DNA from: a virus
Strand: one strand, 5' to 3'
Virus record (IMG/VR): IMGVR_UViG_3300025929_000015
Span: 1-64,000 of that record
Length of the DNA: 64,000 nt
Positions 16,137 to 55,153 of this stretch are shown one piece after another (within the stretch, counting starts at the first letter, position 1; each line of letters begins with the position of its first letter). The translations under genes were made by a program, and so were the position numbers. The notes under the pieces are model-generated. The model did not search any database. It was given only the letters and a program-made list of their open reading frames with translations, and was not told the DNA's origin.

Positions 16137-16883
16137 ATGAGCCGGCAGGCCAAGCATGGCCGCACCCGGGCGCAGGCCGCCGCGGCGTCGGCGTTCGCGG
16201 CGGCCGGCCGGGCTTCGCAGGCCCGGAAGCGGGCGGCGGCGATCGCCAAGACCGGCAAGCCGCCCCCGGTGAGCAAGAGGCGGCACCAGGCGGCGCTGAA
16301 GTGGGCGGCGGCCGGACGCGCGGCGCAGGCCCGGAAGCGGGCCGGTCTCAAGCCGCTCCCGGTGCACGTGCGGGCGCTGGCCGGCGACCCGGCCGTCTCG
16401 ACCATGGGCGGTGCCGTATCATACATGAGCCCGGCCGCCGGCGAGGGTTCCGTGCCGTGTGATGCTTGGCCTGCCGTAGGTCCCATGAGCACGGCTACCT
16501 ACCTCATGATACTCGCTGAGGCGAACAGGGACAGCCCGTGCTGCGCGGCCACGGCCATCGCCACCCACCTGTACCTGTTCCGCGGGATCATGGCCACCGC
16601 GGACGACATCCTGGCACTGCACGCCGCGGGCGGCGGGGACGGCACGCACGGCGCGCTCCTCCCCGACCTGCTCGAGCTGGCCAGCGGTGGTTTCGCCGGC
16701 ACCCGGATCGCCAGCTTCTTCCCCGTGGAGGACGACACGCTGCCGGGGCTTGTCACGGGGCTGCGGCTACCCGGCGGCGCGCACGCGGTCCTGTCCCTGG
16801 GCGGGGCCGCGTGCGTGTCCTGGGGCCAGGTCACGCCGGTCACCGGGCGTGACGGAGAGGCGTGGTGGGCCGAATGGGAATGA
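16137..16883 (+). CDS. Basic N-terminus plus degenerate papain/C39-like domain; linker carries two antisense stem-loop units
   Basis: CCAATAIA...HAVL...SWG motifs. The linker at 16390-16520 has atypical codon usage. Confidence 0.5.
   Translation: MSRQAKHGRTRAQAAAASAFAAAGRASQARKRAAAIAKTGKPPPVSKRRHQAALKWAAAGRAAQARKRAGLKPLPVHVRALAGDPAVSTMGGAVSYMSPAAGEGSVPCDAWPAVGPMSTATYLMILAEANRDSPCCAATAIATHLYLFRGIMATADDILALHAAGGGDGTHGALLPDLLELASGGFAGTRIASFFPVEDDTLPGLVTGLRLPGGAHAVLSLGGAACVSWGQVTPVTGRDGEAWWAEWE
16381..16505 (-). ncRNA. Two dual-spacer stem-loop units (F1, F2), candidate guide-like RNAs
   Basis: On + strand: ccgt-ctcgacca-tgg-gcggtg-ccgt-atcataca-tga and ccgt-gtgatgct-tgg-cctg-ccgt-aggtccca-tga, each closed by an inverted repeat. 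Confidence 0.75.
16506..16534 (-). promoter_or_regulatory. Putative promoter for units F1/F2
   Basis: Minus strand CTGTCC-N17-TATCAT, directly upstream of the units. Confidence 0.55.
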
Positions 16884-17067
16884 GGAAAACCGGCGGCAAC
16901 GCCGGCCGCGCCGGCAACAAGACCAGCGACGCGATGAGCGTCCGGCCCTGGACCGCGAACCTCACCGCCGACCGGCCCGGCTGCCACCAGTGCACCTGGG
17001 TCCGGGTCGGCGCCGTGTGGAAGCTGAAGTTCGTCCACCGCGCCTGCCGCCAGCACAAGAACCTGGG

Positions 17068-17529
17068 GTGAACGCGCCCGGTTCCTGGCGGGACCTGTCA
17101 TCCAGCGCGCTGTTCGGCCTGATCGACGGGCTCAACGGGATGGTGGGCCTGGTGATCGGCCTGCTGCGGGTGCACGCCGTGGCCGCGGTGATCTTCGTCG
17201 CGCTGCTCGCCCGGGCCGGGTCCAGCTCGGTGTCCATGGCCGGCGCCCAGTACGAGTCCGCCGACCCCGGCGAGAGCCGGCGCCAGCGCTGGTCCCGGGT
17301 GGCCGCGATGGGCCTGGGCTACCTGGCCTCCGCGCTGACCCCCGGGCTGGGCTTCGCGGTCAGCACCCGGGCCGGGCTGATCGTGTTCATCCCGGTGACC
17401 GCGGCCATCCTGGCCGGGATCACCTGGTTCCGGTCCAGCACGGCCGGCTGGCTGCGCGCCGCCCTCACCACCGCGGTGATCTTCATCCTGGCGGTCGGTG
17501 CCGGGCTGGCCGCGTCCCTGGCCGGCTGA
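17068..17529 (+). CDS. VIT1/CCC1-family (Fe/Mn exporter-like) membrane protein, minimal
   Basis: FGLIDGL...SVSMAGAQY matches the VIT1 TM1/TM2 motifs (G..DG, SMA.G.Y); about 5 TM segments. Confidence 0.7.
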   Translation: MNAPGSWRDLSSSALFGLIDGLNGMVGLVIGLLRVHAVAAVIFVALLARAGSSSVSMAGAQYESADPGESRRQRWSRVAAMGLGYLASALTPGLGFAVSTRAGLIVFIPVTAAILAGITWFRSSTAGWLRAALTTAVIFILAVGAGLAASLAG

Positions 17530-17541
17530 GAACGGAGTGCC

Positions 17542-17937
17542 GTGAAAAACCTGCGCTGGCTGGTCCTGGCCGCCGCCGCCGCGCTGGCGGCGTGGATCGG
17601 CCTGGCCCCGGGCGCCTGGCAGGACTGGCTCGGCTTCTCCCATGCCGCCTACTTCACCACCGGCCAGAACTACGCGTTCTTCTCCGGGTTCGGCGCCTGG
17701 CTGTCCTCCACCCTGGGCCTGTCCGCGATCATCCTCACGCTGTGGCACCACATCAACTGCCGCGCCGACGGGTGCCCGCGGATCGGGCACTACCCGGACA
17801 GCCGCGGGCTGAAGTGGTGCTGGCGTCACCACCCCGACCATCACGGCCGCAAGCCGACGACGGAGATGCTGCACCGGCTGCACTTCGAGCACAAGAACCG
17901 GACGGCGCCCCCGGGCCCGGCGGGCGATGAGCCGTAA
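17542..17937 (+). CDS. Membrane protein with C-terminal Cys/His cluster
   Basis: Two hydrophobic segments; CRADGC...CWRHHP motif. Confidence 0.55.
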   Translation: MKNLRWLVLAAAAALAAWIGLAPGAWQDWLGFSHAAYFTTGQNYAFFSGFGAWLSSTLGLSAIILTLWHHINCRADGCPRIGHYPDSRGLKWCWRHHPDHHGRKPTTEMLHRLHFEHKNRTAPPGPAGDEP

Positions 17938-18316
17938 AGCCGCAGCTATCACCGTCGCCGCCGCGGCCGCACTGGACGCCGCGGGCGGGCTGGCTTTCGC
18001 CGCCGCCGAGCATGTCAGTGACGCCGCCGGGCTGTACTGGGCGGTCGCCACCGCCACCACCGTCGGCTACGGTGACGTTGCCCCGCGCACCCATGCCGGG
18101 CACGTCCTGGCCGTCGCGGTCATGCTCACCGTCATCCCGCTGTTCGGCGCGGCCTTCTCCCTGTTCACCTCCGGGCTGACCGCACTGCACATCCGCGGCC
18201 ACCTGCGCGACACCGAAGCCGGCATCAAGGCGCACCTGGCCGACAGCCTGCGCCGCCACCACGCCGACATCATCACCCAGCTGAACAGGACGGACAGGAC
18301 GGACGGTCATGGCTGA
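17927..18316 (+). CDS. KcsA-like two-TM potassium channel
   Basis: LYWAVATATTVGYGDVAP selectivity-filter signature, flanked by TM helices. Confidence 0.9.
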   Translation: MSRKAAAITVAAAAALDAAGGLAFAAAEHVSDAAGLYWAVATATTVGYGDVAPRTHAGHVLAVAVMLTVIPLFGAAFSLFTSGLTALHIRGHLRDTEAGIKAHLADSLRRHHADIITQLNRTDRTDGHG

Positions 18317-18722
18317 CTTCGACGCTATGCGGAACGGCCTGGCCGCGCTGATCGGCGCGGCCACCGGGATCCGCGCCCACGCCGACGCATCCGGGGCGAT
18401 CTCCCCGCCGTGCGCGGTGGTGCTGCCCGGGCGCCCGGCCATCACCTACGGCAAGACGATGGACGACGAGGTGGATGTCAACCTGCTCGCCATCGTGCTG
18501 CTGTCCGCCGCCAACGAATCCTCCGGTCAGGTCAACCTGGACGCCTACGTGTCCAGCAGCGGGGCCAAGAGCATCAACGCCGCGGTGGCCACCGACCCGA
18601 GTCTCGGCGGGACCTGCGAATACGCGGTCGTGGTCGCTGTCCAGCAGTACGGGCTCATCGAATACGCTGCGCAGCAGTACATCGGCGCGACGTTCCTGAT
18701 CCAGGCCGGGGCACACGGGTAA
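18309..18722 (+). CDS. Tail terminator-like protein
   Basis: PPCAVV and DPSLGG motifs; size and position typical. Confidence 0.7.
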   Translation: MADFDAMRNGLAALIGAATGIRAHADASGAISPPCAVVLPGRPAITYGKTMDDEVDVNLLAIVLLSAANESSGQVNLDAYVSSSGAKSINAAVATDPSLGGTCEYAVVVAVQQYGLIEYAAQQYIGATFLIQAGAHG

Positions 18723-18736
18723 TCAGGAGGTGTCAC

Positions 18737-18811
18737 ATGTACATAGGCGGCGGAGTCGTACTCCTGATCATCGTCATCATCATCGTCGTACTGCTGCTCA
18801 GGCGCAGGTAG
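18737..18811 (+). CDS. 24-aa single-TM peptide MYIGGGVVLLIIVIIIVVLLLRRR
   Basis: Perfect RBS AGGAGGTG; hydrophobic helix with basic tail. Confidence 0.7.
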   Translation: MYIGGGVVLLIIVIIIVVLLLRRR

Positions 18812-18823
18812 CACATCACGAGG

Positions 18824-19390
18824 CTAGATCACGTGATTCCACTTCTTGCGGGTTTTGATCAGGCTGATATTTGCCTGGGTGACTCCGTATTCAGCGGCGA
18901 GAGCCACCTGGGTCGCGGACCGGTCAGCGAGACGCTGGCGGATGAATCGGACGTCCTGCTCGGTGAGTTTGGCCATGCCATGCTCCTCGCCGCTGAGCGA
19001 ACGGTGAATGAAGGTGCCGTCCCGCTTCTTGTCCTGCTCGTTTTGAGCCCGGGTGCCGTAGCTCAGGTTTTGCGCTGAGTCGTCTCCGGTTCCTGCTGGC
19101 CCGTGCCTGACATCCAGGCCCGGCGGGCGAGGGCCTATAAAAGCCGCCGCGACCAGCGCGTAAACCTTGAACGTCTTGTACTTGCCTTCCCTGGAAAGCA
19201 TGACCTGGCGGTAACCGTGACCGTCTGGCTGAGGCTTCCGGAGCTGGCCGCCGCGCCACCCGGTACGGGTCAGCCGGGGTAGACTGCGGACGCGACCCCG
19301 ATCGCTGACTTCATAGAGCCCTTCGTATCCGGGGACTGGTCTCCATTCTTCGGAATGAGAGGAGGTGGTATGAGAATCTTGATTGTGCAT
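18824..19390 (-). CDS. Free-standing NUMOD4-HNH homing endonuclease
   Basis: EEWRPVPGYEGLYEVSDRGRVRS (NUMOD4), AFIGPRP...NL.YGT..N (HNH_3-like, degenerate) and AKLTEQDV HTH; lower GC; antisense to the operon. Confidence 0.88.
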   Translation of the reverse strand: MHNQDSHTTSSHSEEWRPVPGYEGLYEVSDRGRVRSLPRLTRTGWRGGQLRKPQPDGHGYRQVMLSREGKYKTFKVYALVAAAFIGPRPPGLDVRHGPAGTGDDSAQNLSYGTRAQNEQDKKRDGTFIHRSLSGEEHGMAKLTEQDVRFIRQRLADRSATQVALAAEYGVTQANISLIKTRKKWNHVI

Positions 19391-20441
19391 CCTGGCCCGA
19401 ATTTCAGTGTTGCTGATGTTTTTGCTGGGTGGTCTGAGGCCCTGACAGGGCTCGGTTGTGAAGTCCAAAGCTACAATCTAGATGATTTAGGACCGCCTCT
19501 CTTTCTACGGGAGCTGTCTGCTGCCGACCGGGGAGGAAGACGACGAGGGGCGCCCGGAGATCCACAAGGCGCTGACCAACGACCAGGCCATCCACGCCGC
19601 GCTGCAGGGCATGTCCCACGCGCTGTACACCTACTGGCCGGACGTGGTGCTGTTCATCTCCGCGTTCTGGGTCACCCCCGCGCTGCTGCATGTCATCCGG
19701 CAGCGCCGCCACAAGATCGTCATCTTGCACACCGAATGCCCCTACCAGGACGACTCCCAGCTGGAACGGGCCCAGTTCGCCGACATCAACCTGCTCAACG
19801 ACCCGGTCAGCATCGACCGGTACGCCCGGCTGGACGGCGACGCGGTGTACATGCCGCACGCCTACCGGCCCGCCGTGCACCACCCCCGCCCGGCCGGGAC
19901 CGGCGCGGACCCCGCGCTGGCCGCGGACCTGGCGTTCATCGGGACCGGCTTCAAGTCCCGGGTTGAGTTCTTCGAGGCGATGGACCTGACCGGGCTGGAC
20001 GTGCTGCTCGGCGGGATGTGGATGGACCTGGCCGAGGACTCGCCGCTGCGCACCTACCTCGGCCACGACACCGAGCTGTGCGTGCACAACGACGAGACCG
20101 CCATGATCTACCGCAACGCCCGGTGCGGGATCAACTTCTACCGCCGCGAATGGGAAGAAGGCATGGCCCCGGCCGATGGCTGGGCGATGGGGCCGCGCGA
20201 GGTGGAGATGGCGGCCAGCGAGCTGTTCTTCCTGCGCGACCCGCGCGGCGAAGGCGACGAGCTGTTCAAGGGGATCCTGCCCACCTTCAGCGGGCCCGCC
20301 GAGGCGTCCGCGCTGCTGCGCTGGTGGCTGGCCCGGGACGGACTGCGCGCAACGCGGGCCGGTCAGGCGCGGGCAGCGGTCGCGGACCGGACGTTCGCGA
20401 ACCACGCCCGGCGGCTGCTGGCGATGCTGGACGACCGGTAG
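19370..20441 (+). CDS. GT-B glycosyltransferase (CgeB/Glyco_trans_1_2-like), split by a frame disruption at 19487-19493
   Basis: RBS GGAGGTG, then MRILIVHPG...YNLDD in frame 0. Continues RLSFYG...DLAFIGT...PREVEMAA in the +1 frame from 19494; 354 aa if joined. Confidence 0.8.
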
Positions 20442-20691
20442 CCTTCCGGAACTTCTCCGCCAGCGGGAGCAGGTCCGGGCGCTGCTCCCGCCAGACACCA
20501 TCCCGGCTGCGGAACAGCACCTGGGTGCCGTCCCGGCGGTGGATCAGCGACGGCTCCAGGCACACCACGCCCCACGGCCAGAACAGCCGCTGGTGCCACT
20601 CGAACGCGCTCGGCGACCCGAACGTCTGGTGACACTGCGCGCAGTGGCAGGTCCGCTTCCCGGTGAACGCGCACGTGCACATGCGCACCAT
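20287..20691 (-). CDS. Zn-binding protein (CxxC...F...AF.xH type)
   Basis: CHCAQCHQTFGSPSAFEWHQR motif. Confidence 0.55.
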   Translation of the reverse strand: MVRMCTCAFTGKRTCHCAQCHQTFGSPSAFEWHQRLFWPWGVVCLEPSLIHRRDGTQVLFRSRDGVWREQRPDLLPLAEKFRKATGRPASPAAAGRGSRTSGPRPLPAPDRPALRAVRPGPATSAAARTPRRAR

Positions 20692-20799
20692 GATAAATGT
20701 CCGGGCCGCCGGCCTCCTAATGCGTCCGCGCGCGAGAGCGCCGGCGGTCAACACGGCCCTGAACGGGCTCCCATCACTCAAAGCAAGGAGTGGAATACT

Positions 20800-21570
20800 G
20801 TGAGTCGTATTCACGGTCTACACCAGCAGGCCGCCTGAGAGAGCGATCTTTCAGAGTAAACCGCGAGAATTGCTGGGACACCCGAGTCACCTGGCCAGGC
20901 CACAACGTGGGGCGAAAGCCCGGGCGTGACGGCTTGAGAACTGGCCAGCAGAGGGGCAATCAGCAGCCGAGCCCGCCTGGGTCCGCCCGACGGGAAGGTT
21001 CAGAGACTATGTACGTGGCACCCCACGCGGGTGAAGATATAGTCCGGTCTGCATGGAGACATGCAGAGGCAGGCGGAAACGACCTGCCCGCCCGTTTTCA
21101 GGTAGCGGAAACGGGAAGTAACAAATACGCGCAACGGAATCGCCTACGTCGCCGTCAACGGCCCAGGTGGGGGCGCCGCCACCGGCTCCGCCGTCGCCTC
21201 GCCGATGGCTTTTCTTACTGACTGGAGTATTAATTTCACCGTCGCTAAGGTGGATGTCACCGCGATGGGGGACTCGAACCTGATCTACGTGGCCGGCCTG
21301 CCGGACGCTTCGGGGGACTTCACCGGGTTCTACGACACCGCGACCGCGCAGACCTACGTGGCCGCGACGGACGGCCTGAGCCGCAACTTCTACCTGTACC
21401 CGTCCACGATCGGGGCCCAGGGTACCGCTCCTGGTCAGTACTTCTTCGGAACGATCATCCCTGACTACTCCCTGACGGGTGGTGTCGGGGCCGCGGTCAC
21501 CATGAAGTCAACCTGGAACGCTGCCACGATCATCTCGCGCTACCCGGCGTCTGGTATCGCGGGTACGTAA
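20800..21570 (+). CDS. Major tail tube protein, spliced: join(20800..20817,21130..21570)
   Basis: RBS AAGGAG. Spliced frame reads MSRIHG|RNGIAYV...WSINFTVAKVDVTAMGD...YVAGLPDASGDFTGFYD. Lies upstream of the chaperone and tape measure. Confidence 0.88.
20818..21129 (+). ncRNA. Group I self-splicing intron, 312 nt, no ORF
   Basis: P AATTGCTGGGA (20868), Q AATCAGCAG (20958), R GTTCAGAGACTAT (20998), S AAGATATAGTCC (21034); P7 GACTAT/ATAGTC; P1 cggu|cu pairs with aggccg with U.G at the splice site; terminal G. Confidence 0.93.
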
Positions 21571-21576
21571 CCTGGC

Positions 21577-21715
21577 GGCAGCACCCCGGCCGTATCAATT
21601 CTGGGTTTCCCGTGACCAGTCTGGGCCGGGGTGCTGCCCCACGATCCGCTGTGCTGGCAGCACCCCGGCCGTTTCTCTCATGGAGGCCGTTCCCCTCTGG
21701 GCCAGGGTGCTGCCA
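21577..21715 (-). ncRNA. Two dual-spacer stem-loop units (A1, A2)
   Basis: A1: ggcagcaccccgg-ccgt-atcaattc-tgg-gtttc-ccgt-gaccagtc-tgg-gccggggtgctgcc. A2: ...ccgt-ttctctca-tgg-agg-ccgt-tcccctc-tgg-gccagggtgctgcca (one 7-nt segment). Confidence 0.8.
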
Positions 21716-21737
21716 TACCCGGTTGATGGGTTCTGTC

Positions 21738-21766
21738 AGGGTAACCCATGCGCGAAGTTAGGACAA
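21738..21766 (-). promoter_or_regulatory. Putative promoter for units A1/A2
   Basis: Minus strand TTGTCC-N17-TACCCT; same -35 type as the promoter at 16534. Confidence 0.55.
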
Positions 21767-21767
21767 G

Positions 21768-22337
21768 GTGAGCACAGACAGCTACGACCTGGATCTCGGG
21801 TCGGAACACGACGCGATCGTCGTGCAGGCCAGCTCCGACCGGGAGCTGGCCGGTGAGGTCATCACGCCCGGTGAGAGCATCACTCTCGCCGGGCGTTCTT
21901 TCCGTGTCGCGGAGAAGGTCGGCCTGATGCCGCTGCTCAAGTTTTCTCATGCGGCCGGGCTCAAGACGACCGATGAGCGGGCGTACGTGGCGATGTACCA
22001 GATCCTGCGGGACGTGATCCGCGGGGCGGACCCGGCCTGCGGCCGGTGCGAGGGATGCAAGGAGGCGGCCGGGGAGCCGACCGCGCGGGACTGCCTGACC
22101 GCGGACGGCGGGGACTGGGACGCGTTCGAGGACTGGGCGGTGGAATGCAAGGCGGACGCCGATGAGCTGCTGGACGTGGTGTCGGAGGCGGTCAAGGTGA
22201 TCACTGCCCGCCCTACCAAGCCAGCTTCCGGCTCCTCGCCTTCGTCGCCGCGAACTTCGCGGACCTCGACGGGCAGCAAGTCCGCACGTGCGGGCGGGGC
22301 CTCCGGGGGCTCACGCCGCGGGAAGCGTGCAACCTAG
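21768..22337 (+). CDS. Tail assembly chaperone (short form)
   Basis: Lies between tube and TMP; ends RPT plus a Ser-rich tail, typical of G/GT genes. Confidence 0.75.
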   Translation: MSTDSYDLDLGSEHDAIVVQASSDRELAGEVITPGESITLAGRSFRVAEKVGLMPLLKFSHAAGLKTTDERAYVAMYQILRDVIRGADPACGRCEGCKEAAGEPTARDCLTADGGDWDAFEDWAVECKADADELLDVVSEAVKVITARPTKPASGSSPSSPRTSRTSTGSKSARAGGASGGSRRGKRAT

Positions 22338-40366: not shown

Positions 40367-40426
40367 GGGGCCGGCCGCCGGCACTATGGGCCGGTTCCCC
40401 GGCCGTAGCCATTCTGGGCCGGCCTC
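40367..40426 (-). ncRNA. Dual-spacer stem-loop unit D
   Basis: ggggccgg-ccgc-cggcacta-tgg-gccggttccccgg-ccgt-agccattc-tgg-gccggcctc. Confidence 0.75.
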
Positions 40427-42480: not shown

Positions 42481-42482
42481 GT

Positions 42483-42968
42483 TCAGCCTCCGGGCTGATC
42501 GTCCCCCGCGAGGCCGGGCGCGCCGCTAGCTCCATGGTGTCCGTCATCGCCTTGGGCGCGCCCGGCCCCGGTATCGGCGTAGAGGTCCTCCACGCCGATC
42601 ATGGCCCGGCCGCGCCGGGTCAGCTCCGTATTGAGGGTATCGATGAGGATCCGCAAGGTGGAGATCTTGGGGCGGAGCCGGTCCCCGTTCTCGATCTTGG
42701 CGATGGCGTCGCGGGAGATCCCGACGTGCCGGGGGAGCGCCACGCCCGCGTCGTGCAGCGTGGCGGTCAGCTGGGCTTCGCTCATCGTGGCGGAGCCGCC
42801 GATGTCGTTGGCGGCGGCGAGCTGGCGCAGCTCGGTGAGGCGGGTGAGCGCGGACAGGTCGATGCGCTCGAGCAGGGCCGCCTCACGCAGCGCCTTCAGC
42901 TTGTGCCGGTCGATGGCGATGCCGATGCCGGGCCGCCGGACGGGGGGTGCGGGGGGGGAGCGCTTCAT
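42483..42968 (-). CDS. XRE-type HTH regulator with an insertion
   Basis: KLKALRE...(insert)...VGISRDAIAKIENG..RPKISTL. Confidence 0.65.
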   Translation of the reverse strand: MKRSPPAPPVRRPGIGIAIDRHKLKALREAALLERIDLSALTRLTELRQLAAANDIGGSATMSEAQLTATLHDAGVALPRHVGISRDAIAKIENGDRLRPKISTLRILIDTLNTELTRRGRAMIGVEDLYADTGAGRAQGDDGHHGASGAPGLAGDDQPGG

Positions 42969-43070: not shown

Positions 43071-43337
43071 ATGATGAGCACCCTGACCCTGACCCCCATG
43101 CTGAAGTTCCGCGTGCAGGTGGCGCTGCGCCAGAAGCGGATCCGCCGCGCCGACTACACGTCCGCCATGCTCGCCTTCACCCTGACCGACGGGACCGTGC
43201 TGAAACTGACCAGCGAACCCGAGGTCCTCATCGCGCTGCGCTGCCTGACCTCCGCCGCCCACGCGGGCATGACCCCGTTCGAGGCCCGCGCGGCCGAGCG
43301 GTCCGCCACCGCCGAGGCCGGCCCGGCGGCGACATGA
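43071..43337 (+). CDS. Hypothetical protein, divergent from the XRE gene
   Basis: RBS AGGAGG; TACACT -10 upstream. Confidence 0.6.
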   Translation: MMSTLTLTPMLKFRVQVALRQKRIRRADYTSAMLAFTLTDGTVLKLTSEPEVLIALRCLTSAAHAGMTPFEARAAERSATAEAGPAAT

Positions 43338-43742
43338 CCGCGCCGAAGACGCCGCCCCCGCCCAGCATGCCCACGGAATCTCCCAAAGTTCCTACGGCGG
43401 GGGCGGGCGGGCCGCGGCTGCCCACGTTCGGCAAGCTGCCCCGCCCGTTCGAGCCGAACCTGACCGCGGCGCACGCCCCGGCGCACTGCCTGTGCACCTG
43501 GACCTGGACCCCGGCGCTCGGCGGGCCGGACCGGCCGTTCGCGATGAAGTTCAGGAACAGGGCCTGCCCGGTCCGGCACTAGCTGGGGAACCGGCGGGTG
43601 ACGTGTCCTTCCCCGCCGCATTCGGTGCACCGGGCCTTGACCCCCCATTTGGTGGGATGCGGCACCCACCCTCTATCGCACCGGGCCGGGCAGCGGATCA
43701 CCCGGGTCACGCCCTTTTTCGCCCTGGCCATCCCTCAGTGTA

Positions 43743-45051: not shown

Positions 45052-46662
45052 TCAGTCATCGCGTCCTCCGTACAGGGTGCGGTCCCAGGTCTGGTGGCCG
45101 TTCACGGCATCTTTGACTACCCAGGGGAAATCGGACGGACGGGTGCCCCAGGTCAGCTCCCGCGGCCAGTCGTACTCATCCCGCGGCCCGCGCCACGCAT
45201 CCACCCGTACGTCCCGTTTCTTCGCCGGGTCCGGCTTGAAGATGCCGTAACCGAAATCAGGCCATCCCATGAACAAGCTCGAACCGCGGGGGCGCAACGT
45301 CCGCGGCGTGCCGTGCGGCGAATGCGCCTCCACGATCAGCGCCGGCTCGCAGATCTCCAGCGCCAGGTCCAGCACGTGCACGATAGCGCGGGCGGCCAGC
45401 TCCTCATTCGCGTCGATGGCGTGCAGCTTGTACAGCGGCCCGACCACCAGCAGGTCCGGCCGGTAGGCGCTGACCCGCTCGAAGACGAACTCGGCGTCCT
45501 CGCCGGACAGCAGGTTCATCCCGCCGGGACGGTGCACGATCCGGAACCCGCCCGGGGGCAGCGGGCGGTGCTGCAGCTCGCACGCCCGGACCAGCTCGCG
45601 GAACTTGCGCCGGGACCGCTTCACCCGGTTCTCGCAGTCCAGGAACAGCACCCGCTGCGGCGGCAGGTGGTTGAGCTTGAACGGGTGCAGGCCCGCCGCC
45701 GCGGCCACCGCGATCTGCCGGGTCACGGTCGTCTTGCCCAGCCCCTCCTCCCCGGTCCAGATCAGCCGGTCGCCCCGCTCGAGCAGGTCCTTGATCACCC
45801 AGTTGTCCGGGGGGTCGGGCTGGGTGACGAACGCCAGCAGGTCCATCGCCAGCTCCGGCTCGCGGTCGGCGTCCTGCTCGCTGGTCACCTCCAGCTCCGC
45901 CAGCGTGCGCCCCGCGCCCAGGTGGTCCGAGACGTCCTTGCCGACCGCGGGCTCGCGGATCTCCGCCGCCGCGGCCACCCCGTCCAGGCTCCGCGCGATC
46001 GCACGGGCGTGCTGGCGGCCGGGCTTGTCCGCGTCGGCGACGATCACCACGATCGCGTCACGCAGGCACTCGGAGTACTCCGGGCGCCACTTGCCCGCCC
46101 CGCCCGGGTTGCAGGTCGCCACCACCCCGGCGCGTTCCAGCGCGTGCACGTCCTTCTCGCCCTCGGCCACCCAGATCAGCTCGCCCGCGTCGATCGCGGG
46201 CCGCAGCCGGGGCAGCCGGTACAGCACCCGCCGGGTGTCCCCCAGCCGCCAGCGCCACCCGCTGGCCGCCAGCGGGTCCGGCACCCGGACCGGGAACTGC
46301 TTCTTGCCGCCAGGTGGGGGCGGCACCCGCAGCACCTGGTACAGCACCGTGCCCTGCTCGTCGGCGTAGGAGTACACCTCGGTGGCCGTCCCGTACGGCG
46401 TCCACAGCTCCCGGTCCGCCGGCGCCGCGGCGTCCCGGTCGGCGCTGATGTCGGCCAGCGTCAGCCCGACCGCGGCCAGCACGCCGGCCGTGTCGCAGCC
46501 GGCCCGGCAGATCATCACCACGGGCTGGTCCAGGCCGGGCTTGATGTCCAGGCTGGGGGTGGTGTCCTCGTGCGCCGGGCAGCGTGCCATCCAGTAGCCG
46601 TGCTGCGGGCGCACGTCCTCCAGCCGCTGCAGCACACGGTCCAGGATCTCCTGGCCCTCCAT
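45052..46662 (-). CDS. Primase-helicase (Zn finger, TOPRIM, RepA/AAA_25)
   Basis: CPAHED; AEGEKD and DADKPG (TOPRIM); GEEGLGKT Walker A. Confidence 0.9.
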   Translation of the reverse strand: MEGQEILDRVLQRLEDVRPQHGYWMARCPAHEDTTPSLDIKPGLDQPVVMICRAGCDTAGVLAAVGLTLADISADRDAAAPADRELWTPYGTATEVYSYADEQGTVLYQVLRVPPPPGGKKQFPVRVPDPLAASGWRWRLGDTRRVLYRLPRLRPAIDAGELIWVAEGEKDVHALERAGVVATCNPGGAGKWRPEYSECLRDAIVVIVADADKPGRQHARAIARSLDGVAAAAEIREPAVGKDVSDHLGAGRTLAELEVTSEQDADREPELAMDLLAFVTQPDPPDNWVIKDLLERGDRLIWTGEEGLGKTTVTRQIAVAAAAGLHPFKLNHLPPQRVLFLDCENRVKRSRRKFRELVRACELQHRPLPPGGFRIVHRPGGMNLLSGEDAEFVFERVSAYRPDLLVVGPLYKLHAIDANEELAARAIVHVLDLALEICEPALIVEAHSPHGTPRTLRPRGSSLFMGWPDFGYGIFKPDPAKKRDVRVDAWRGPRDEYDWPRELTWGTRPSDFPWVVKDAVNGHQTWDRTLYGGRDD

Positions 46663-47819
46663 CAGTCCCACAACCCGGACCGCGGTACGAGCGGGTCGGC
46701 GGCGGAGGTGCCCGGGCGCCGCCGGGCGGCTGCCTGCAGGACCACGTATTTCTCGCGCAGCTTGCTCATCGACAAGATGTTCGGACGCCAGAACTCATCG
46801 TCCTGGCACCAGTCGATCGCGGCATGGACCCGGTCCTCGCAGAGCCCGTCGATGTCCAGCAGGTAGCGGGCGGACTGCCGCCACAGCTTGCCGATGTGCG
46901 GTCGCCGGCCGCTCTGCTGCTCGATCCGGTCCGCGAGGTGCTGGCAGAGCCGGTCCACGTCGGGCCGCACCCCGGGCTCATCCCGGCCGCCGTCAGCCAG
47001 CTCGCCGAGTTGCTCAGTGGTGATCTTGCCGTCCGCCAGCTCGGCTAGATGATCCTTGGTGGACCGGCGCGCCACCGTCGCCGTCACCCCGTGCGCCGTC
47101 GCCCACGTCACCCACACGGCCTTGGTGGCGCTCACCGCGGGACGCCGAACCGGATCATCATCACCGTCCGAACCGTTGACTTTCGGTTCGGACGAAGAAC
47201 AAGAACTACGTAGTAGTTCTTGTAGGTCTTTAGGTGAGGTGAGGTGAGGTGAGGTGTTAGGCATAAAACGAGCATTGCTTGCAGCATGGATTTGCTGGGA
47301 CGATGCAGCACTGATAGTTGAACTTTCAGTTACTTCCGGCTCCTCGGCATGCTGAAGAGCCGTCATTTCATGCGACCCGTTTCTGAGCATCGTTTGAGCA
47401 TTGCTCGCAGCATCGATTTGCTGGGACGATGTGCCGGGAGCATTGCTCGGGGCATCGGTTTCCTGGGACGATGCGTCCCACCGCTTGCGTGCGGCCCGGA
47501 CCGCCCGGTCGGAACGACTGGCCCACCGGCCGAGCTGCTGCCAGTGCGCGAAGTCGTGGATGATCCACCCGTCCCCGGTGGCCTGCCACAGCCCGACGGC
47601 CACGAGCAGCCGGGCCAGCTCGGCGCTGCCGCCCAGCCGCCGGGGCAGCGACGCGGGGATGTGCCCCGCCTCGTCGGGCACGTGCGGGTCGGCGTGCCGC
47701 TTGGCCCAGCCGAGCGCCAGCGCCCACAGCCCGATGGCGGCCAGCCCGCCGTCATGCTCCAGCAGGGCCAGCACCTTGGGGTGATCGTAGAACTGGTCAT
47801 CGACCAGCGCCCAGGTCAT
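46662..47819 (-). CDS. Replication initiator (replisome organizer)
   Basis: W...DD.FYDHPKV N-terminus; DEFWRPNILSMSKLREKY C-terminus; internal iterons. Confidence 0.8.
   Translation of the reverse strand: MTWALVDDQFYDHPKVLALLEHDGGLAAIGLWALALGWAKRHADPHVPDEAGHIPASLPRRLGGSAELARLLVAVGLWQATGDGWIIHDFAHWQQLGRWASRSDRAVRAARKRWDASSQETDAPSNAPGTSSQQIDAASNAQTMLRNGSHEMTALQHAEEPEVTESSTISAASSQQIHAASNARFMPNTSPHLTSPKDLQELLRSSCSSSEPKVNGSDGDDDPVRRPAVSATKAVWVTWATAHGVTATVARRSTKDHLAELADGKITTEQLGELADGGRDEPGVRPDVDRLCQHLADRIEQQSGRRPHIGKLWRQSARYLLDIDGLCEDRVHAAIDWCQDDEFWRPNILSMSKLREKYVVLQAAARRRPGTSAADPLVPRSGLWD
47270..47473. repeat. Three ~36-bp iterons; likely replication origin
   Basis: gagcattgctYg..gcatSgRtttSctgggacgatg at 47270, 47396 and 47438, next to a lower-GC tract with tandem ggtga repeats at about 47200-47270. 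Confidence 0.75.
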
Positions 47820-47825
47820 GGCCGC

Positions 47826-49863: not shown

Positions 49864-49938
49864 CGCGGGGTCGCCTAGCTCGGTATGGCATTGGGCTCAT
49901 AACCCAAAATAACGCGGGTTCGAATCCCGCCCCCGCTT
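49864..49938 (+). tRNA. tRNA-Met(CAT), initiator type, no encoded CCA
   Basis: Acceptor CGCGGGG/CCCCGCT with unpaired C1; anticodon arm TTGGG-CTCATAA-CCCAA (3 G-C pairs); T arm GCGGG-TTCGAAT-CCCGC; TATACT upstream. Confidence 0.85.
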
Positions 49939-49940
49939 CT

Positions 49941-50324
49941 ATGATGAGCGTTGAGTGGCACCGCGAATACCAGCGCAACCGCCGTATCGAGCGGCTGGCA
50001 CTAGCGCGCGAGCGCCTCGGCGGTCGGTGCGTGCGGTGCGGTGCGACCGAGGACCTGGATTTCGACCACATCGATGCGGGGACCAAGGTACGGAACATCT
50101 CCGAGGCAACCAACTGGGCACTGGCCAGGTTCTTGGAAGAAGTAGACAAATGCCAGCTCCTGTGCCGACACCATCACCACGAGAAGTCAGCCGAGGCCGG
50201 GGATGTCAGGATCGTAGAGCACGGCGGTGGCGTCAAAGGCAAGCACAACTGCCCGTGCACTCTATGTAAGACTGCACGTCGGGAGAATATGCGGCAGCGC
50301 CGGGCGCGGGCGGCCTCGGTCTAG
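49941..50324 (+). CDS. HNH endonuclease abutting the tRNA
   Basis: LGGRCVRCG...LDFDHID...KCQLLCRHHH. Confidence 0.85.
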   Translation: MMSVEWHREYQRNRRIERLALARERLGGRCVRCGATEDLDFDHIDAGTKVRNISEATNWALARFLEEVDKCQLLCRHHHHEKSAEAGDVRIVEHGGGVKGKHNCPCTLCKTARRENMRQRRARAASV

Positions 50325-50330
50325 TACACG

Positions 50331-50666
50331 TCACAGCTTCCTGGTGATCGCCCGGAGCTGGCGGGCGACGTGCGCCCGCCCGCGCTCGGTGTCCAGGTCG
50401 GCCTCGATCACGGCGTCGGCGACCTTGCGCAGCCGGGCGGGGATCACTGCCCCGGGCTGCACGATCAAGATGATCGGCTTGTCCAGCATCAGCGCCATGC
50501 CCAGCTCGACGGCGTATTTCACGTCGAAATTACCGCCGTCGGGGTACAGGCTGGCCACGTACGCCGACTCCGCCATCGCCTGGACGGTGTGCTCCCGCTG
50601 GTGCTGCACGAACCGGTCCCATTCGGCCCGCTCCGACGGGGACAGGCCCTCCACCCAGTCGCTCAC
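50331..50666 (-). CDS. Hypothetical protein, nucleoside deoxyribosyltransferase-like fragment
   Basis: AVELGMALMLDKPIIL motif. Confidence 0.5.
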   Translation of the reverse strand: MSDWVEGLSPSERAEWDRFVQHQREHTVQAMAESAYVASLYPDGGNFDVKYAVELGMALMLDKPIILIVQPGAVIPARLRKVADAVIEADLDTERGRAHVARQLRAITRKL

Positions 50667-51139
50667 AGCTCCTCCTGTCCCGTGTCCCCGGGCCGGCCGC
50701 CGTACCCGGTGCCCCGGCCGTGCTGCTGCTCGGCGGCGGCCAGGAAATCGTAAAGTTCCCGGTTCTGCACGTACATCTTCCGGCCTTCAAACATCATGCC
50801 AGGGGCGACCTTGCGGAGGGTTTCCGGGTCGTCCACCCACCAGGCTCCGACGGGTTCGATGCCATCGGGGATGGGGCCGAGGTCTTCCTTCACGGTCACG
50901 GTGCCGTACGGGGGGCCATTGTCCCAGTCGTCTTCGGTGAACAGGTACAGCGAGCCGAATTTCTCCCGGATCCCGATGAACCCGCCGTTCCCGTCATAGA
51001 CCCCGTAGGGCAGGTTCCGCGAAACGATCCGGTACAGGTGCCCCCTGATCAGGGTGAATTCTTTATTGCGCGGCCCGTTATCCGGCTTGAGTTTTTCCTG
51101 TGCTTCGGCGATCCGCTGTTCCAGTGGTTTGCTGTCCAT
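50663..51139 (-). CDS. Hypothetical protein
   Basis: Coupled ORF (TAAATG); lower GC. Confidence 0.6.
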   Translation of the reverse strand: MDSKPLEQRIAEAQEKLKPDNGPRNKEFTLIRGHLYRIVSRNLPYGVYDGNGGFIGIREKFGSLYLFTEDDWDNGPPYGTVTVKEDLGPIPDGIEPVGAWWVDDPETLRKVAPGMMFEGRKMYVQNRELYDFLAAAEQQHGRGTGYGGRPGDTGQEEL

Positions 51140-52123
51140 TTATTCACCCTCTTTCGGTGCTACCAATTCCAACTTGACGCTCTCACCCTCGCGCAGCGGC
51201 GGCCGGGCCCCAGCCCGGGCATAGTCTTCGCGGACCTGTTCAGTGTCCAGGGACCGGCGACTGGAGACGGTCCAGCGCAAGACGTACGGGAAGTTCTCAA
51301 GCTGGACCTCGCCGCGTCCGCTGGTGTTGGGCCGCAGCGCGTCCAGCGCCCCCTTGGCCAGGGCTTCCTCGGCTTCGGCCTGCTTCTTGGCCTCCCGCGC
51401 GGCCGCCAGCCGCTTGGCCCATCCGGCCGCGTCCTGGTCCTCGACCAGCAGGACCGACCGCTCGTCCCGGTCGATCACATGGCCTTCCCAGCAGGTGCCC
51501 GAGAACGGGCAGTTCCGGCATTGCGCCGAGTCGGGGGCGAAGTCGCGGGCCAGCCATTCCAGCGGGGTTTCGCGGACCTGCTCCAGCCACTGCATCGCCT
51601 CGGTGACGGCGGCGTAGTCGAACGGCCCGGACCACATCCACGTGTTCCCGGAGTCGCGGACCAGGTAGTCCAGCTGGACCTGCTCCACGTCCAGGCCGCG
51701 GACGATCAGCGCCGCCGCATAGACTTGCACCTGCCAGAGGTGGCGGCGCGGCGGGCCGTTCAGCCGGTAGTTCGCCACCTGCATGTCGTAGCCGACGGTC
51801 TTGACGTCCCGCAGCACCGGCCGGACGTACAGGTCGGGGTGGCCGAGCACCCCGCCGAACTGCACTTCCTCGTTGATCACCGAGTCGGCGGGGATCAGGC
51901 CCTCGTCCCGCATCCGCAGCAGCGCCCGGTCCACCGCGTCGTGCACGGCGGTGCCGATCACCGCCTGCACGCTACCGCTGGGCTTCTCCGGCGGATACCC
52001 GTGGACGGTGTAGCCCGCCCGGCGCCGGCACCCACCGAGGTCCGATACGCCGAGGGCGCGCTGGCGGCTCCGCGGCCGTTCCCAGTCGGCCTTGAGTAGC
52101 AACTCCGCAGTAGACGGAATCAT
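51140..52123 (-). CDS. PD-(D/E)XK Cas4/RecB-like exonuclease
   Basis: S.LGGCRR, GTAVH, GHPD...DVKT, QVQVY and CRNCPF...C (4-Cys cluster). Confidence 0.88.
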   Translation of the reverse strand: MIPSTAELLLKADWERPRSRQRALGVSDLGGCRRRAGYTVHGYPPEKPSGSVQAVIGTAVHDAVDRALLRMRDEGLIPADSVINEEVQFGGVLGHPDLYVRPVLRDVKTVGYDMQVANYRLNGPPRRHLWQVQVYAAALIVRGLDVEQVQLDYLVRDSGNTWMWSGPFDYAAVTEAMQWLEQVRETPLEWLARDFAPDSAQCRNCPFSGTCWEGHVIDRDERSVLLVEDQDAAGWAKRLAAAREAKKQAEAEEALAKGALDALRPNTSGRGEVQLENFPYVLRWTVSSRRSLDTEQVREDYARAGARPPLREGESVKLELVAPKEGE

Positions 52124-52307
52124 GGGGCACTCCGGCCGCGCTCCCCATGGGCAGCGCCGTGAGATCCATGAGCCGGAGTGCCCCACGCGGCACCCCGTCC
52201 GTGTGATCTATGGGCCGGGCCGTAGCGTGCATGGGACGGGGACCCGCAGGCGGCACCCCGGCCGTACCCGCACTGGATACCGTATCTCAGATGGGCCGGG
52301 GTGCCGC
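52123..52307 (-). ncRNA. Array of three dual-spacer stem-loop units (B1-B3)
   Basis: Units at 52123-52185, 52187-52247 and 52250-52307. Segment pairs: gctcccca/gagatcca, gtgatcta/agcgtgca, acccgcac/atctcaga. Compensatory stem changes. Confidence 0.85.
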
Positions 52308-52310
52308 GGC

Positions 52311-52574
52311 TCACCAGTGGCGCGCTTTCGGGTGCCGCCGCGGCTTGACCGGGGCGGGCGGCTTGGCGTCCATGTCCGGGTACTTGTACCAGCGCAGCGT
52401 GCCGTTCTCGTTCTTCTTGTGCGGGCAGGCGACCGGGCCGGCCTCGAACTGGATCATCCCGCACCACGGGCAGCACCACAGGGTGCAGTGCCCGGCGCGG
52501 CAGTACCGCCGGACGGGCTCGGCGTCCCCCCGGTCCTCGCACAGGCACGACTTGCAGTCCTTCAGCTTGGTCAC
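52311..52574 (-). CDS. Small Cys-rich protein
   Basis: Several CxxC motifs; RBS GGAGG. Confidence 0.55.
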   Translation of the reverse strand: MTKLKDCKSCLCEDRGDAEPVRRYCRAGHCTLWCCPWCGMIQFEAGPVACPHKKNENGTLRWYKYPDMDAKPPAPVKPRRHPKARHW

Positions 52575-52814
52575 GTCTTACCTCCCGCAGTTCAGGACAG
52601 CGCGGCCCGGCGCCGGCGTTCCTCGTCGACCTCGGCCATGGCGAGGTCCAGCATCATGGCGACGTGCCGCAGGTCCTCGGTGGAGGTGATCAGCCGCCCG
52701 CCGGGGTCGCCGCCTTCTTCGCGTACCGCGACCACCACCGCGAACCCGATGGTGCGCTCGCGCGGGACCCCGCTCAGCGCGGCCAGCACTTCGGCGAGCG
52801 GCTCCAGGTCGTCT

Positions 52815-53984
52815 TCACGTTTCCTCATCAGCATCCTGCCCGGGTTCCTCGATGGTTTTCAGGTAGCGGTCCAGCGCCTGGCGGCGGGCCCCGGAGGAGG
52901 CGTGCCCGCCTGCCACCCGGGTCACCGTATCGTGGATGATGAACACCTCACCTTTGGACAGCTCGTTCATGCCGGACAGCTCGCGGTGGGCCAGCACGGC
53001 GCACAACCGGACCTGGGCGGGGCCGCTGACCCCGCAGCGGCGCAGCAGTTCGTGCAGCTCGGGCAGCCCCGGCGGCTCAGCGCGGACCGTCCCGGCCGTT
53101 TCACCTGTGGTCGCCGTTTCGACGTTGGGCCGGGACGACCCGCTGACCTCGTAGTCCGCCGAAGCCGCCGTCTCTGATGTGGGTTCCGTAGTCGTCATGG
53201 GCGGCCCCGGCGGGACCGCCGCCCCCGCCGTAGCTGGTTTGGGTTCCGTCGCCTCTGTGGGCGGGGGCGGATGCTCGGTGCCGGCGGCGTGCTGGCGGTC
53301 CAGCTGGGCCAGCTTGTCGCGCACGTCCTGCACGCCCGGCGCGGGCTGGGGGGCGGGGACGACCTCGGCCAGGACGGTGCTGCCGTCGTTGCCGTCCCCG
53401 ATCCCGGCCAGGTCAAATCCAAAGATCAACTCAGGGCAGCCGCGGGCGGCGCCGCGGGCGACCGCCCGCCATTGGAGCATGTCTTTCCGGTAGCTCTCCC
53501 AGGGCAGGGGCTGGCCGCTGCTGGACCGGGCGACGAGCTTGCCGTCGTGCCTCTTGACCAGGCCCGCGGCCTGCGCGTCCTGCACGGTAAACCGGCCGGT
53601 GTATTTAATCTTGAATTCCTCGTCTTTGCGAGTGATCACAAACTCGCAGGAATCCTCGGACTCGACGAAGTCGTACCTATGGCCGGCGGCGCGGATCCGG
53701 GCCAGCAGCAGCGCGCCGCGCAGGCCCGGCTGGCCAGACGGCAGCACGTAGATGCCCCGGATCGCCTGGATCCAGCTCAAGCCCAGCTCCCGGCCCAGCA
53801 GCATGGTAATGAGGCAGTTCTGCGGCGAGCCGCGGAGCGCCTGCGGGACCATGGACGACTGGGCCAGCATGGTGGCCAGCCGGAACGCCTGGTCCAGGTC
53901 GGACAGCGGGTCGTTCAGATCGACGGCAATCCGCTGCTGCTCCGTCCGGGCGAGCGCCGTGCCCGGCTCGTCAGGCTGCGTCAT
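52815..53984 (-). CDS. RecT-like single-strand annealing protein
   Basis: LAQSSMVP...G.ELGL, AQAAGL and W..Y..DML.WRA...AAR..CPE motifs; upstream of the exonuclease. Confidence 0.8.
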   Translation of the reverse strand: MTQPDEPGTALARTEQQRIAVDLNDPLSDLDQAFRLATMLAQSSMVPQALRGSPQNCLITMLLGRELGLSWIQAIRGIYVLPSGQPGLRGALLLARIRAAGHRYDFVESEDSCEFVITRKDEEFKIKYTGRFTVQDAQAAGLVKRHDGKLVARSSSGQPLPWESYRKDMLQWRAVARGAARGCPELIFGFDLAGIGDGNDGSTVLAEVVPAPQPAPGVQDVRDKLAQLDRQHAAGTEHPPPPTEATEPKPATAGAAVPPGPPMTTTEPTSETAASADYEVSGSSRPNVETATTGETAGTVRAEPPGLPELHELLRRCGVSGPAQVRLCAVLAHRELSGMNELSKGEVFIIHDTVTRVAGGHASSGARRQALDRYLKTIEEPGQDADEET

Positions 53985-54004
53985 GGTGTTCCTCCCGTGG
54001 GCGG

Positions 54005-54055
54005 GGAGGTGCCGTAGGTAGCATGGGTGAAACCGCTACGGCCCTGGGCACCTCC
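54005..54055 (-). ncRNA. Dual-spacer stem-loop unit E
   Basis: ggaggtg-ccgt-aggtagca-tgg-gtgaaa-ccgc-tacggccc-tgg-gcacctcc. Confidence 0.8.
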
Positions 54056-54151
54056 GCACGTCCATTGTACCCTGGTTGTCTCTGGCTGTCTTCCATGCTA
54101 GCGTGGGGGTACGACAAAACGGAGCGTGGGTACGGCAAAACGGGAGCCCGC

Positions 54152-54829
54152 ATGACCATCAGCCTGATGTACGACGCCACCCATGACAACATCGGCCACC
54201 TGCCGCCGCACGCCACCTACGCGGGCTACACCACCGGCAGCGGCGGCATCGCCTGGACCGCGGCGGACTGGAAGAAGTTCCCCGACGCGGTGCGGATCGA
54301 CCAGGACGCCAGCGCCGCCGACCCGTCCGCCGACATCCTGGACGTGGAGAACGGCGCGGCCACCCCGGCGGAATGCCCCGGCTGGGCCCGGCGGGCGCTG
54401 GCCAGCTTCGCCAGCGCCGCCCGGCCCGGGCAGCGTTCCCCCGCCATCTACGCCGGCGCCGCCGCCATCACCACCGTGGCCAACGCGCTGACCGCGGGCG
54501 GCGTCACGTCCGGTGTCGGGCTGTGGGTGGCGAACTGGAACCTGACCGACTCGGAGGCGGTCGCGGCCGTGACCGCGGCGTCCGGGCCGTTCCCGGTCAT
54601 CGCGGTGCAGTTCCGCAACGCCGGCCCGTACGATATCAGCGTGGTATCGACCAGCTGGCTGACCCGCCGGTCGGCGCCGCCGGTGACCGCGCACGTCCCG
54701 CCCGGGCAGTGGCTGGACCCTGCCGCGTGGACGTGGCAGACGGCGCGGCTGTCCGGCACCGGGCTGGACGGGAACACGCACGAGTGGGATTACCACCCCG
54801 GCACGGGGCAGTGGTCGCGGGCCACGTAG
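54152..54829 (+). CDS. GH25-like muramidase/endolysin
   Basis: LDVENG, PAIY, LWVANW, AVQF and DIS motifs. Confidence 0.7.
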   Translation: MTISLMYDATHDNIGHLPPHATYAGYTTGSGGIAWTAADWKKFPDAVRIDQDASAADPSADILDVENGAATPAECPGWARRALASFASAARPGQRSPAIYAGAAAITTVANALTAGGVTSGVGLWVANWNLTDSEAVAAVTAASGPFPVIAVQFRNAGPYDISVVSTSWLTRRSAPPVTAHVPPGQWLDPAAWTWQTARLSGTGLDGNTHEWDYHPGTGQWSRAT

Positions 54830-54985
54830 GCATGCCCGCGCCCGCCCCGGAAGTAGTGCTGGCCCGCTGCGCGGTCTGCCGGTTCCGGATGGACCCGGTG
54901 CTGCCGCTGCACGGGTACCGCACCCACCCGTGCTGCCAGCCCGGCGAGGTATCCCCGCGCTGGGAACCCGGCGACACCCCGCTGC

Positions 54986-55153
54986 GCGGGCCCAAGAGGA
55001 AAACGGCCCACCGGGCCCAAAGAGCCAACGGCCCGCCGCCCACAACGGGTACGGAACCAGCCAGGGTGATAACGGCGGCGGGTACAGTAGCGGGATGACA
55101 GGCAGCCCCGGCCCAGGGACCAACCCCACAAAGATGACGGCCGGGGCTGCCTG
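54986..55153 (+). ncRNA. Three dual-spacer stem-loop units (C1, C2, degenerate C3)
   Basis: cca-agaggaaa-acgg...cca-aagagcca-acgg; cca-caacgggt-acgg-aaccag-cca-gggtgata-acgg; caggcagccccggc-cca-gggaccaa-cc-cca-caaagatg-acgg-ccggggctgcctg. Confidence 0.75.

Follow-up and report, generated by a model that had tools for sequence, protein, structure and literature searches.

Dispersed two-segment stem-loop units in an uncultured soil phage as probable tigRNA genes of the nuclease-less TasA type

Introduction

Stem-loop TIGR arrays are built from units with two spacers of 8-12 nt, a box C that reads CCA, variable palindromic stems and variable loops (PMC12045711; bioRxiv 10.64898/2026.09.09.750476), and the box motifs of TIGR can diverge (Science paper, PMC12045711). 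Such arrays accompany TasA proteins that have no nuclease, namely PlTasA from a Peromyscus gut contig, BlTasA of Bifidobacterium longum and the TasA of Minisyncoccota (PMC12045711; bioRxiv 10.64898/2026.09.09.750476). Stem-loop units may even lie within the tas coding sequence, where they occupy disordered regions and leave the frame unbroken (TIGRFinder preprint, bioRxiv 10.64898/2026.09.09.750476). Here we describe stem-loop units of this general layout in an uncultured tailed phage, IMG/VR record IMGVR_UViG_3300025929_000015 (hereafter G000). Its first 64 kb (positions 1 to 64,000, the window) were analysed as a whole and the remainder of the 99-kb record was searched for related features.

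We consider it probable, at roughly 0.75, that these units are the stem-loop tigRNA genes of a TIGR-Tas system with a nuclease-less effector (TasA type). This assignment draws on the anatomy of the units, their non-random occurrence, the covariation of their stems, the association of their boxes, in relatives, with Tas-like genes and the speed at which their segments turn over. The units belong to a kind that has already been published (2025-2026) and represent no new class; a preliminary description of the window, made from the sequence alone, had put them forward as a candidate RNA-guided system, the novelty of which is overstated because the stem-loop form is already in print.

Results

Anatomy and non-random occurrence of the units

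Read along the strand that carries CCA, each unit consists of a 5' stem arm, (C/T)CA, eight variable nucleotides (N8, segment A), (A/G)CGG, a loop, CCA, a second N8 (segment B), (A/G)CGG and a 3' stem arm; CCA corresponds to box C and RCGG to box D. The loop between the half-sites measures 3-13 nt (17 nt in U18), and the outer stems are variable and span 7-17 bp. In a register test, the C before CCA together with the first C of the box paired with the last GG of the second box D; the box bases thus pair with each other and close the outer stem. Equivalent pairs between the first box D and the second box C close a short inner stem, and the two 8-nt segments, each with A on one side and A/G on the other, lie opposite one another within a symmetric internal loop. 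The units are as follows (coordinates are those of the window unless indicated otherwise).

16380-16442, minus strand: U1; box C is TCA, bulged stem; antisense within the late open reading frame (ORF) g24
16450-16494, minus strand: U2; 7-bp outer stem; antisense within g24
21577-21638, minus strand: U3; 15-bp stem; intergenic, antisense to the flanking tail-tube gene and next late gene
21655-21715, minus strand: U4; 16-bp stem; spacer A of 7 nt
40369-40424, minus strand: U5; 13-nt inner hairpin loop, second box D is GCGG; directly 3' of a minus-strand GH5-like operon, sense
42509-42570, minus strand: U6; 16-bp stem; within the 3' end of ORF g48 (42483-42968, minus strand), sense
43352-43406, plus strand: U7; 11-bp stem; just 3' of g49 (43074-43337, plus strand), sense
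52121-52307, minus strand: U8-U10; tandem mini-array of three units between g64 and a PD-(D/E)XK exonuclease gene, sense
53082-53270, minus strand: U11-U13; three units in frame in the disordered linker of a RecT-like protein, sense
54005-54055, minus strand: U14; leader of the RecT-like gene, sense
54986-55083, plus strand: U15-U16; adjacent pair, sense; a small Cys-rich ORF ending at 55098 runs through both as its C-terminal tail
55102-55149, plus strand: U17; degenerate, with an intact 12-bp stem but neither first box D nor loop
G000 93593-93640, outside the window: U18; nested in the loop of a hairpin of a second family

In total, there are 17 units in the window, including the degenerate U17, and 18 in the record, distributed over ten sites that spread across ~77 kb. 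Mini-arrays of two or three units are found at 16.4, 21.6, 52.2, 53.2 and 55.0 kb and the remaining units are single; the record contains no large tandem arrays adjoining a tas gene. Among complete segments, 33 of 34 are exactly 8 nt long, the exception being segment A of U4 (7 nt). All 34 differ from each other, and segments A and B of the same unit are not complementary (a mean of 1.6 complementary positions out of 8, against 2.0 between units). With 54% G+C, the segments stand out from a genome of 70% G+C.

Comparison of the window with 100 dinucleotide shuffles showed that the units are far from a chance product. The strict half-site CCGT-N8-TGGG was found 26 times (5.6 +/- 2.6 expected from the shuffles), a relaxed double motif 18 times (0.82 +/- 1.0 expected) and a strict double motif 10 times (0.04 expected). 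The outer stems form a mean of 11.4 contiguous pairs compared with 4.0 for pairings between arms of different units; the 16 units compared have 14 distinct 8-nt arms. Covariation of this kind between paralogous copies favours a fold of the single strand. The only conserved motifs of the units are CCA and RCGG; a 36-nt periodicity is absent from the window, as are edge or loop repeats of conserved sequence.

The preliminary description had listed 12 units of this grammar at six loci. All six loci hold such units and all 12 are present, but the number was an undercount, as five more (U6, U7 and U11-U13) lie in the window and U18 lies outside it. Its further statements, that the segments are nearly constant at 8 nt, all different and not complementary within a unit, and that the stems differ in sequence yet keep pairing, are borne out by the counts above; the motif, which it had proposed to compare with shuffled controls, is not equally frequent in them.

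Link to a family of Tas-like proteins

A scan of IMG/VR for the double motif returned mostly coding repeats, plus two records of interest. One (G002) is a 4.2-kb fragment that is 99.6% identical to positions 19.2-23.4 kb of the phage and carries an identical copy of U3. The other (G001) is 38,850 bp long and comes from a related phage, with structural proteins that share 41-75% identity with the products of g3-g29. It contains 41 CCCA-N8-ACGG sites, compared with 2 for the reversed-pattern control. Most of these sites form tandem arrays at 7.2-7.5, 8.5-8.7 and 9.5-10.0 kb, which flank an ORF at 7748-8479, and a few single stem-loop units lie in the structural region.

The product of this ORF (243 aa) has no Pfam match. 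It matches the NCBIfam profile NF052498 (TIGR_Tas_endo, 'TIGR-Tas system RNA-guided endonuclease') over positions 44-212 of 215, with an E-value of 6.7e-8 and a score of 32.7 bits that is below the curated cut-off. An AlphaFold model built from the family alignment (pLDDT 91.5) was compared with the PDB by Foldseek: its ten best matches are all TasH-tigRNA or TasR-tigRNA complexes (probability 0.85-1.0, TM 0.43-0.49), and every other PDB match has a probability of <=0.04. Because no nuclease domain is recognisable in it, we call this protein TasA-like, a small protein with a predicted Nop fold.

The TasA-like protein has 90 homologue clusters in metagenomes, many of them with low-complexity N-terminal extensions. 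Six further IMG/VR loci carry a gene of this family, and five of them are enriched 9- to 25-fold for a box variant of their own: TCCA-N8-ACGA (two loci), CCCA-N8-ACGA, GCCA-N8-ACGA and CCAA-N8-CGGC. The sixth locus (L143) shows no clear enrichment of any variant. These enrichments tie the CCA-N8-ACG grammar to the Tas-like protein family. In a 93%-complete record of a 117.5-kb phage (G003), 40 double sites lie on either side of the tas gene and two more lie ~38 kb away. Repeat-like stretches in which the loops are conserved (CGCAAG, for example) occur in G001 and G003 as well.

This association also bears on the idea that the units are structured RNA or DNA elements unrelated to Tas, such as terminators or attenuators, RNase III-type processing sites, sites bound by another phage protein (a CCR-N9-YGG operator) or mobile palindromes of the REP or MITE type. 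Most units do lie at gene ends or between genes, both strands of the units fold about equally well, and the units look like insertions when compared with unit-less orthologues, all of which would suit such elements. However, no U-tracts follow the unit stems, and a terminator scan of 16000-22000 called no whole unit, its single overlapping call being an internal fragment of U4. The covariation of the stems around unconstrained N8 segments would not be needed by a double-stranded DNA operator, and the copies have no common sequence beyond the boxes, unlike copy-and-paste repeats. In relatives, Tas-like genes are surrounded by massive arrays of these very boxes. We regard elements of this sort as the least probable of the explanations weighed here.

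Turnover of the segments

The g24 unit occupies the same position in the G001 orthologue, which has one unit where G000 has two; the outer stem is nearly the same and both N8 segments have been replaced. The preliminary description had taken invariance of the N8 segments across relatives, with no bipartite targets, as a sign against a guide function, and at this shared site they are not invariant. No spacer is common to G000 and G001.

Contigs from four rhizosphere runs were aligned to the region at 51.9-55.3 kb. A 1.5-kb contig of a sister strain (run X2) differs from the record by six substitutions and 12 indels, of which five substitutions and all 12 indels fall within 55,109-55,143, the interior of U17. 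Both stem arms of this copy carry 1-nt deletions that keep the pairing. In a neighbouring 1.2-kb contig, three of the six differences lie in U9: one in the stem, where a wobble pair is kept, one in a segment and one in the loop. Such fast turnover of segments, with frames and stems conserved, would be expected of guide modules.

U17 is thus a hypervariable spot between strains that are otherwise 99.6% identical. The net insertion of ~7-8 nt in the sister strain would bring U17 to the length of a complete two-segment unit, and the copy in the record may be a deletion derivative.

Units within genes, their orientation and promoter-like motifs

Several units lie within protein-coding genes. The genes and motifs in question are the following.

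16137-16883, plus strand: g24, a late-module ORF with a linker encoded by the antisense units U1-U2
16506-16534, minus strand: candidate promoter-like motif CTGTCC-N17-TATCAT, directly upstream of U2/U1; no call in the sigma-70 scan
21738-21766, minus strand: candidate promoter-like motif TTGTCC-N17-TACCCT, upstream of U4/U3; no call in the sigma-70 scan
52815-53984, minus strand: gene of a RecT-like single-stranded DNA (ssDNA)-annealing protein of 389 aa (phrog_4171 and phrog_561, E ~1e-24), which hosts U11-U13

The RecT-like ORF is a single open frame, with a third-position G+C signal that is strong on either side of 53,070-53,270 and fades across it. Its product is full-length (the phrog_4171 match covers residues 21-380), and U11-U13 encode a Pro/Thr/Ala-rich linker that joins two conserved parts of the protein. 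In 25 homologues this linker is present but shorter and cannot be aligned. The possibility that the RecT-like protein is itself the tas gene with internal guides was rejected, as it is a full-length member of the RecT family. In addition to U11-U13, U1-U2 are antisense in the linker of g24, and two small ORFs end in tails made up of U6 and of U15-U16. The linker of a distant RecT homologue (38% identity; GenBank WGS contig, L016 1640-1700) contains a hairpin with a 13-bp stem and a single CCCA-N7-ACGG, possibly a decayed unit in a comparable position.

Relative to the surrounding genes, CCA lies on the sense strand in 14 of the 18 units, the remaining four (U1-U4) being antisense in the late operon. 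Each of the antisense pairs, U1-U2 and U3-U4, is preceded by YTGTCC-N17-TANNNT, a pattern that occurs three times (0.11 expected), although two of the three occurrences are the sites that yielded it. A sigma-70 scan made no call at the two sites upstream of these pairs. The promoter argument of the preliminary description was made post hoc and is overstated.

Search for the effector gene

The preliminary description had recognised no effector gene in the window, and we found none in the whole 99-kb record either. Several results weigh against a TIGR-Tas assignment and are gathered here. Pfam Nop, Pfam Transposase_20 (PF02371) and NF052498, searched against all six frames of the record, gave nothing at E <=10, and a hidden Markov model of 91 members of the Tas-like family, run with filters off against all ORFs of >=50 aa of the record, gave no score above 4 bits. 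The match of the G001 protein to the Tas profile is itself below the NCBIfam cut-off, and the Foldseek E-values of its model are 0.07-0.8. Box D reads ACGG instead of the canonical UG, and the four units that are antisense to their operon would depend on putative promoters. No units were seen in relatives found through RecT, be it the closer ones (59-67% identity, represented only by short fragments that reach upstream) or the distant ones (44-48%). Composite targets with <=2 mismatches in the phage genome numbered two against ~5 expected, in a search confined to that genome, as 16-bp targets are too short for a blind database-wide search.

Other searches were equally negative. No Nop-like match was found among g2-g10, g20, g24, g77, g79, g92, g133 and others, PF02371 had no match in G001 at E <=10, and the genome is not depleted in single 8-nt segment words (94 observed, 93.9 expected). 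The product of g68 (55154-~55850), just downstream of U15-U17, was considered as an effector and rejected, since its homologues adjoin RecT in unit-less relatives and it has no family match.

Most likely, the tas gene would lie in the unassembled ~17% of the genome, just beyond the end of the record. The last part of the record (98.7-99.25 kb) is weakly syntenic with 1.0-1.6 kb of G001, where the first array starts at 2.1 kb and the tas gene at 7.7 kb, and repeat arrays tend to break assemblies; both considerations led us to place the gene off the record. An exact 29-mer from the record end was not found in IMG/VR.

Absence of the gene from the record could also mean that this lineage has lost tas and that the hairpins are orphan or relic guides, either neutral passengers or elements co-opted for RNA stability or processing, without guide function. 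Besides the lack of a tas homologue in 99 kb and the degenerate state of U17, this is favoured by the surroundings of g92, whose homologue lies directly upstream of an array and a tas gene in G003 but which in the phage is followed by an unrelated hairpin and an AAA ATPase. Decay would be expected in the absence of selection, whereas 16 of the 17 units in the window and U18 keep both boxes, the 8-nt spacing (7 nt in one case) and stems of 7-17 bp. Moreover, sister strains show compensated stem changes along with segment turnover, and the record is incomplete, stopping where the arrays of G001 begin. On balance, we find a loss of this kind unlikely.

As for g92 itself (260 aa, G000 69330-70112), the 71% identical homologue in G003 (58700-59494) is directly upstream of the TIGR array and tas; G003 is otherwise unrelated to the phage, and the remaining tas loci that were inspected showed no homologue. 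The g92 protein may travel with the module as a partner, or may be what is left of a lost module.

Alternatively, effector-less hairpins might load the Tas of a co-infecting relative or of the host, or serve as an anti-Tas sponge. In favour of this are the large number of intact units on a record without tas and the identity of their boxes with those of the Tas-bearing G001. On the other hand, the Tas-like family was not found, by a single peptide pattern, among 185,579 prokaryote species represented by one genome each (GTDB), which lends no support to a host-supplied Tas, and nothing separates this arrangement from one in which tas simply lies off the record. We therefore rate it as very improbable. 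A bolder version is that the phage truly has no tas and that its 18 hairpins act in trans, as guides for the Tas of a co-infecting relative or as decoys that titrate the Tas of a competitor, the guide units moving on their own as modules and inserting, on either strand, at gene ends and in disordered linkers throughout a genome. To this version we would give only a small chance.

The phage genome and its other elements

The source record is 99,376 bp long, with 70% G+C, assigned to the linear class and estimated to be ~83% complete by CheckV. In addition to a gene for a 2058-aa tape-measure protein, it carries primase/helicase-like, RecT-like and PD-(D/E)XK exonuclease genes, genes for glycosyl- and methyltransferases, a tRNA-Met gene and a group I intron. 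According to the run records, the habitats are soil and rhizosphere metagenomes, and all 24 sequencing runs listed as containing DNA of this phage are DNA metagenomes. Among GenBank phages, neither megablast of 50-56 kb nor tblastn of g68 gave a match, and RecT gave distant matches only; judged by these comparisons, the phage has no close relative there.

At the gathering threshold, the window gave two Rfam matches only, to a group I intron and to a tRNA. The intron (RF00028, 20807-21066, 65.4 bits, full-length match) lies directly upstream of the called tail-tube ORF (21250-21570), and the tail-tube gene is probably split by it. Two stretches have a low G+C content (47-60%) for this genome. 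The first (47140-47400) breaks a long minus-strand ORF (46662-47819) that shows a coding signal on either side, and the second (55940-56300) comes after the true end of g68 (~55850), although the frame continues without a stop to 56272. Introns, regulatory regions or insertions may account for these stretches.

A second family of hairpins, unrelated to the units, comprises seven copies of ~59 nt, all on the minus strand between accessory genes. One lies in the window (59338-59397) and the others at G000 67345-67402, 69256-69313, 87140-87198, 88847-88906, 90583-90643 and 93566-93668; the shared bases ATCCTGCCAGG...CTGCTTGCCAGGAGGCA flank a variable GC stem, with folding energies of -45 to -74 kcal/mol. 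The seventh copy (93566-93668) holds U18 nested in its loop.

ParB-like genes occur in operons with some tasA genes (2025 paper, PMC12045711). The accessory region outside the window includes ParB-like and Ku-like genes (G000 82979-83845 and 85119-85865), with no tas nearby. Two methyltransferase genes (1561-2022 and 2620-3162) lie among glycosyltransferase-like genes, and no link was made between them and the units. Among the capsid-region genes, an ORF at 13206-14597 (463 aa) without a family match consists almost entirely of repeats of the type QGSWLATGTGTAQ.

Discussion

If the units are tigRNA genes of the TasA type, their mode of action can be outlined by homology with the published systems. 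The steps that we infer in this way are transcription, processing, Tas binding and DNA targeting, to which the location of tas has to be added. Each unit would be transcribed, along with the sense transcript of the early and middle operons and probably from its own antisense promoter in the late operon, and host RNases would trim it to a hairpin RNA of ~45-65 nt. In this RNA, C-G pairs of box C (CCA) with box D (ACGG) would close the outer and the short inner stem, so that a symmetric internal loop presents the two 8-nt segments. Both box C/D pairs would then be bound by a dimeric Nop-fold Tas protein, and the two segments would pair with opposite strands of a DNA site of 16-18 bp. Without a nuclease domain, the outcome would be binding or repression and no cutting. 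The units of the phage occupy at least ten sites instead of clustering beside the effector gene, several being tolerated in disordered protein linkers.

TIGR-Tas arrays have so far been catalogued around tas genes, whereas the phage and G001 show that units with this grammar can lie far from any tas gene, at distances of tens of kilobases, so that surveys anchored on tas would undercount guides. Such units can occupy unrelated protein-coding genes on either strand, and one insertion site has been kept between diverged phages while its guide segments were replaced. A 2026 preprint (bioRxiv 10.64898/2026.09.09.750476) has asked how tigRNA units originate and are renewed, and whether they are co-transcribed or have separate promoters; the units of the phage and of G001 bear on both questions. 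Near-identical sister strains that differ almost only inside one unit offer a natural system for following spacer turnover.

The preliminary description had likened the units to the dual-spacer guides of both TIGR systems and bridge RNAs. The TIGR half of this comparison is upheld by the anatomy and by the Tas-like gene of G001, and the bridge-RNA half is not, there being no IS110 domain. The bridge RNAs of IS110 elements do resemble the units in that a structured RNA, to which a Nop-like domain binds, presents two short guides in its internal loops. They differ in that the record encodes no DEDD or Transposase_20 domain, that there are many units rather than one per element, and that no element ends are seen. 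Archaeal and eukaryotic box C/D s(no)RNAs have a terminal stem, two guides and a pseudo-twofold layout bound by a dimer of Nop-domain proteins, all as in the proposed complex. The phage units, however, have neither the RUGAUGA/CUGA boxes nor a k-turn, their guides are 8 nt long instead of 10-12 or more, and no fibrillarin or L7Ae partner was identified.

Closer to the units are the dual-repeat TIGR arrays that serve TasR and TasH (PDB 9mty, 9w04 and others). The order box C-spacer A-box D-loop-box C-spacer B-box D is the same, and the model of the G001 protein has no credible match besides TasR and TasH structures. The related effector is without an HNH or RuvC domain, however, and the window shows none of the edge and loop repeats or the 36-nt periodicity of those arrays.

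The closest counterpart is the stem-loop TIGR array with TasA. Common to both are hairpin-framed units with two spacers, CCA 5' of each spacer, palindromic stems of variable sequence and loops of varying length, as well as the tolerance of units inside coding sequence, in disordered regions and with the frame intact. The G001 effector, too, is predicted to be a small Nop-fold protein with no recognisable nuclease domain. The phage units depart from this pattern in their box D, which is (A/G)CGG as opposed to UG, in their spacers of 8 nt (33 of 34), in their dispersal over ten sites and ~77 kb instead of flanking tas, with no tas on the record, and in their embedding in genes other than tas (the linker of RecT, the antisense strand of a late structural ORF and the terminal parts of two small ORFs). 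What is particular to this phage is, thus, the scatter of the units, their embedding in non-tas genes on both strands, the ACGG box D, a syntenic site with replaced guides and a hypervariable unit, all on a record without tas, in combination with an anatomy that is otherwise that of the stem-loop TIGR systems.

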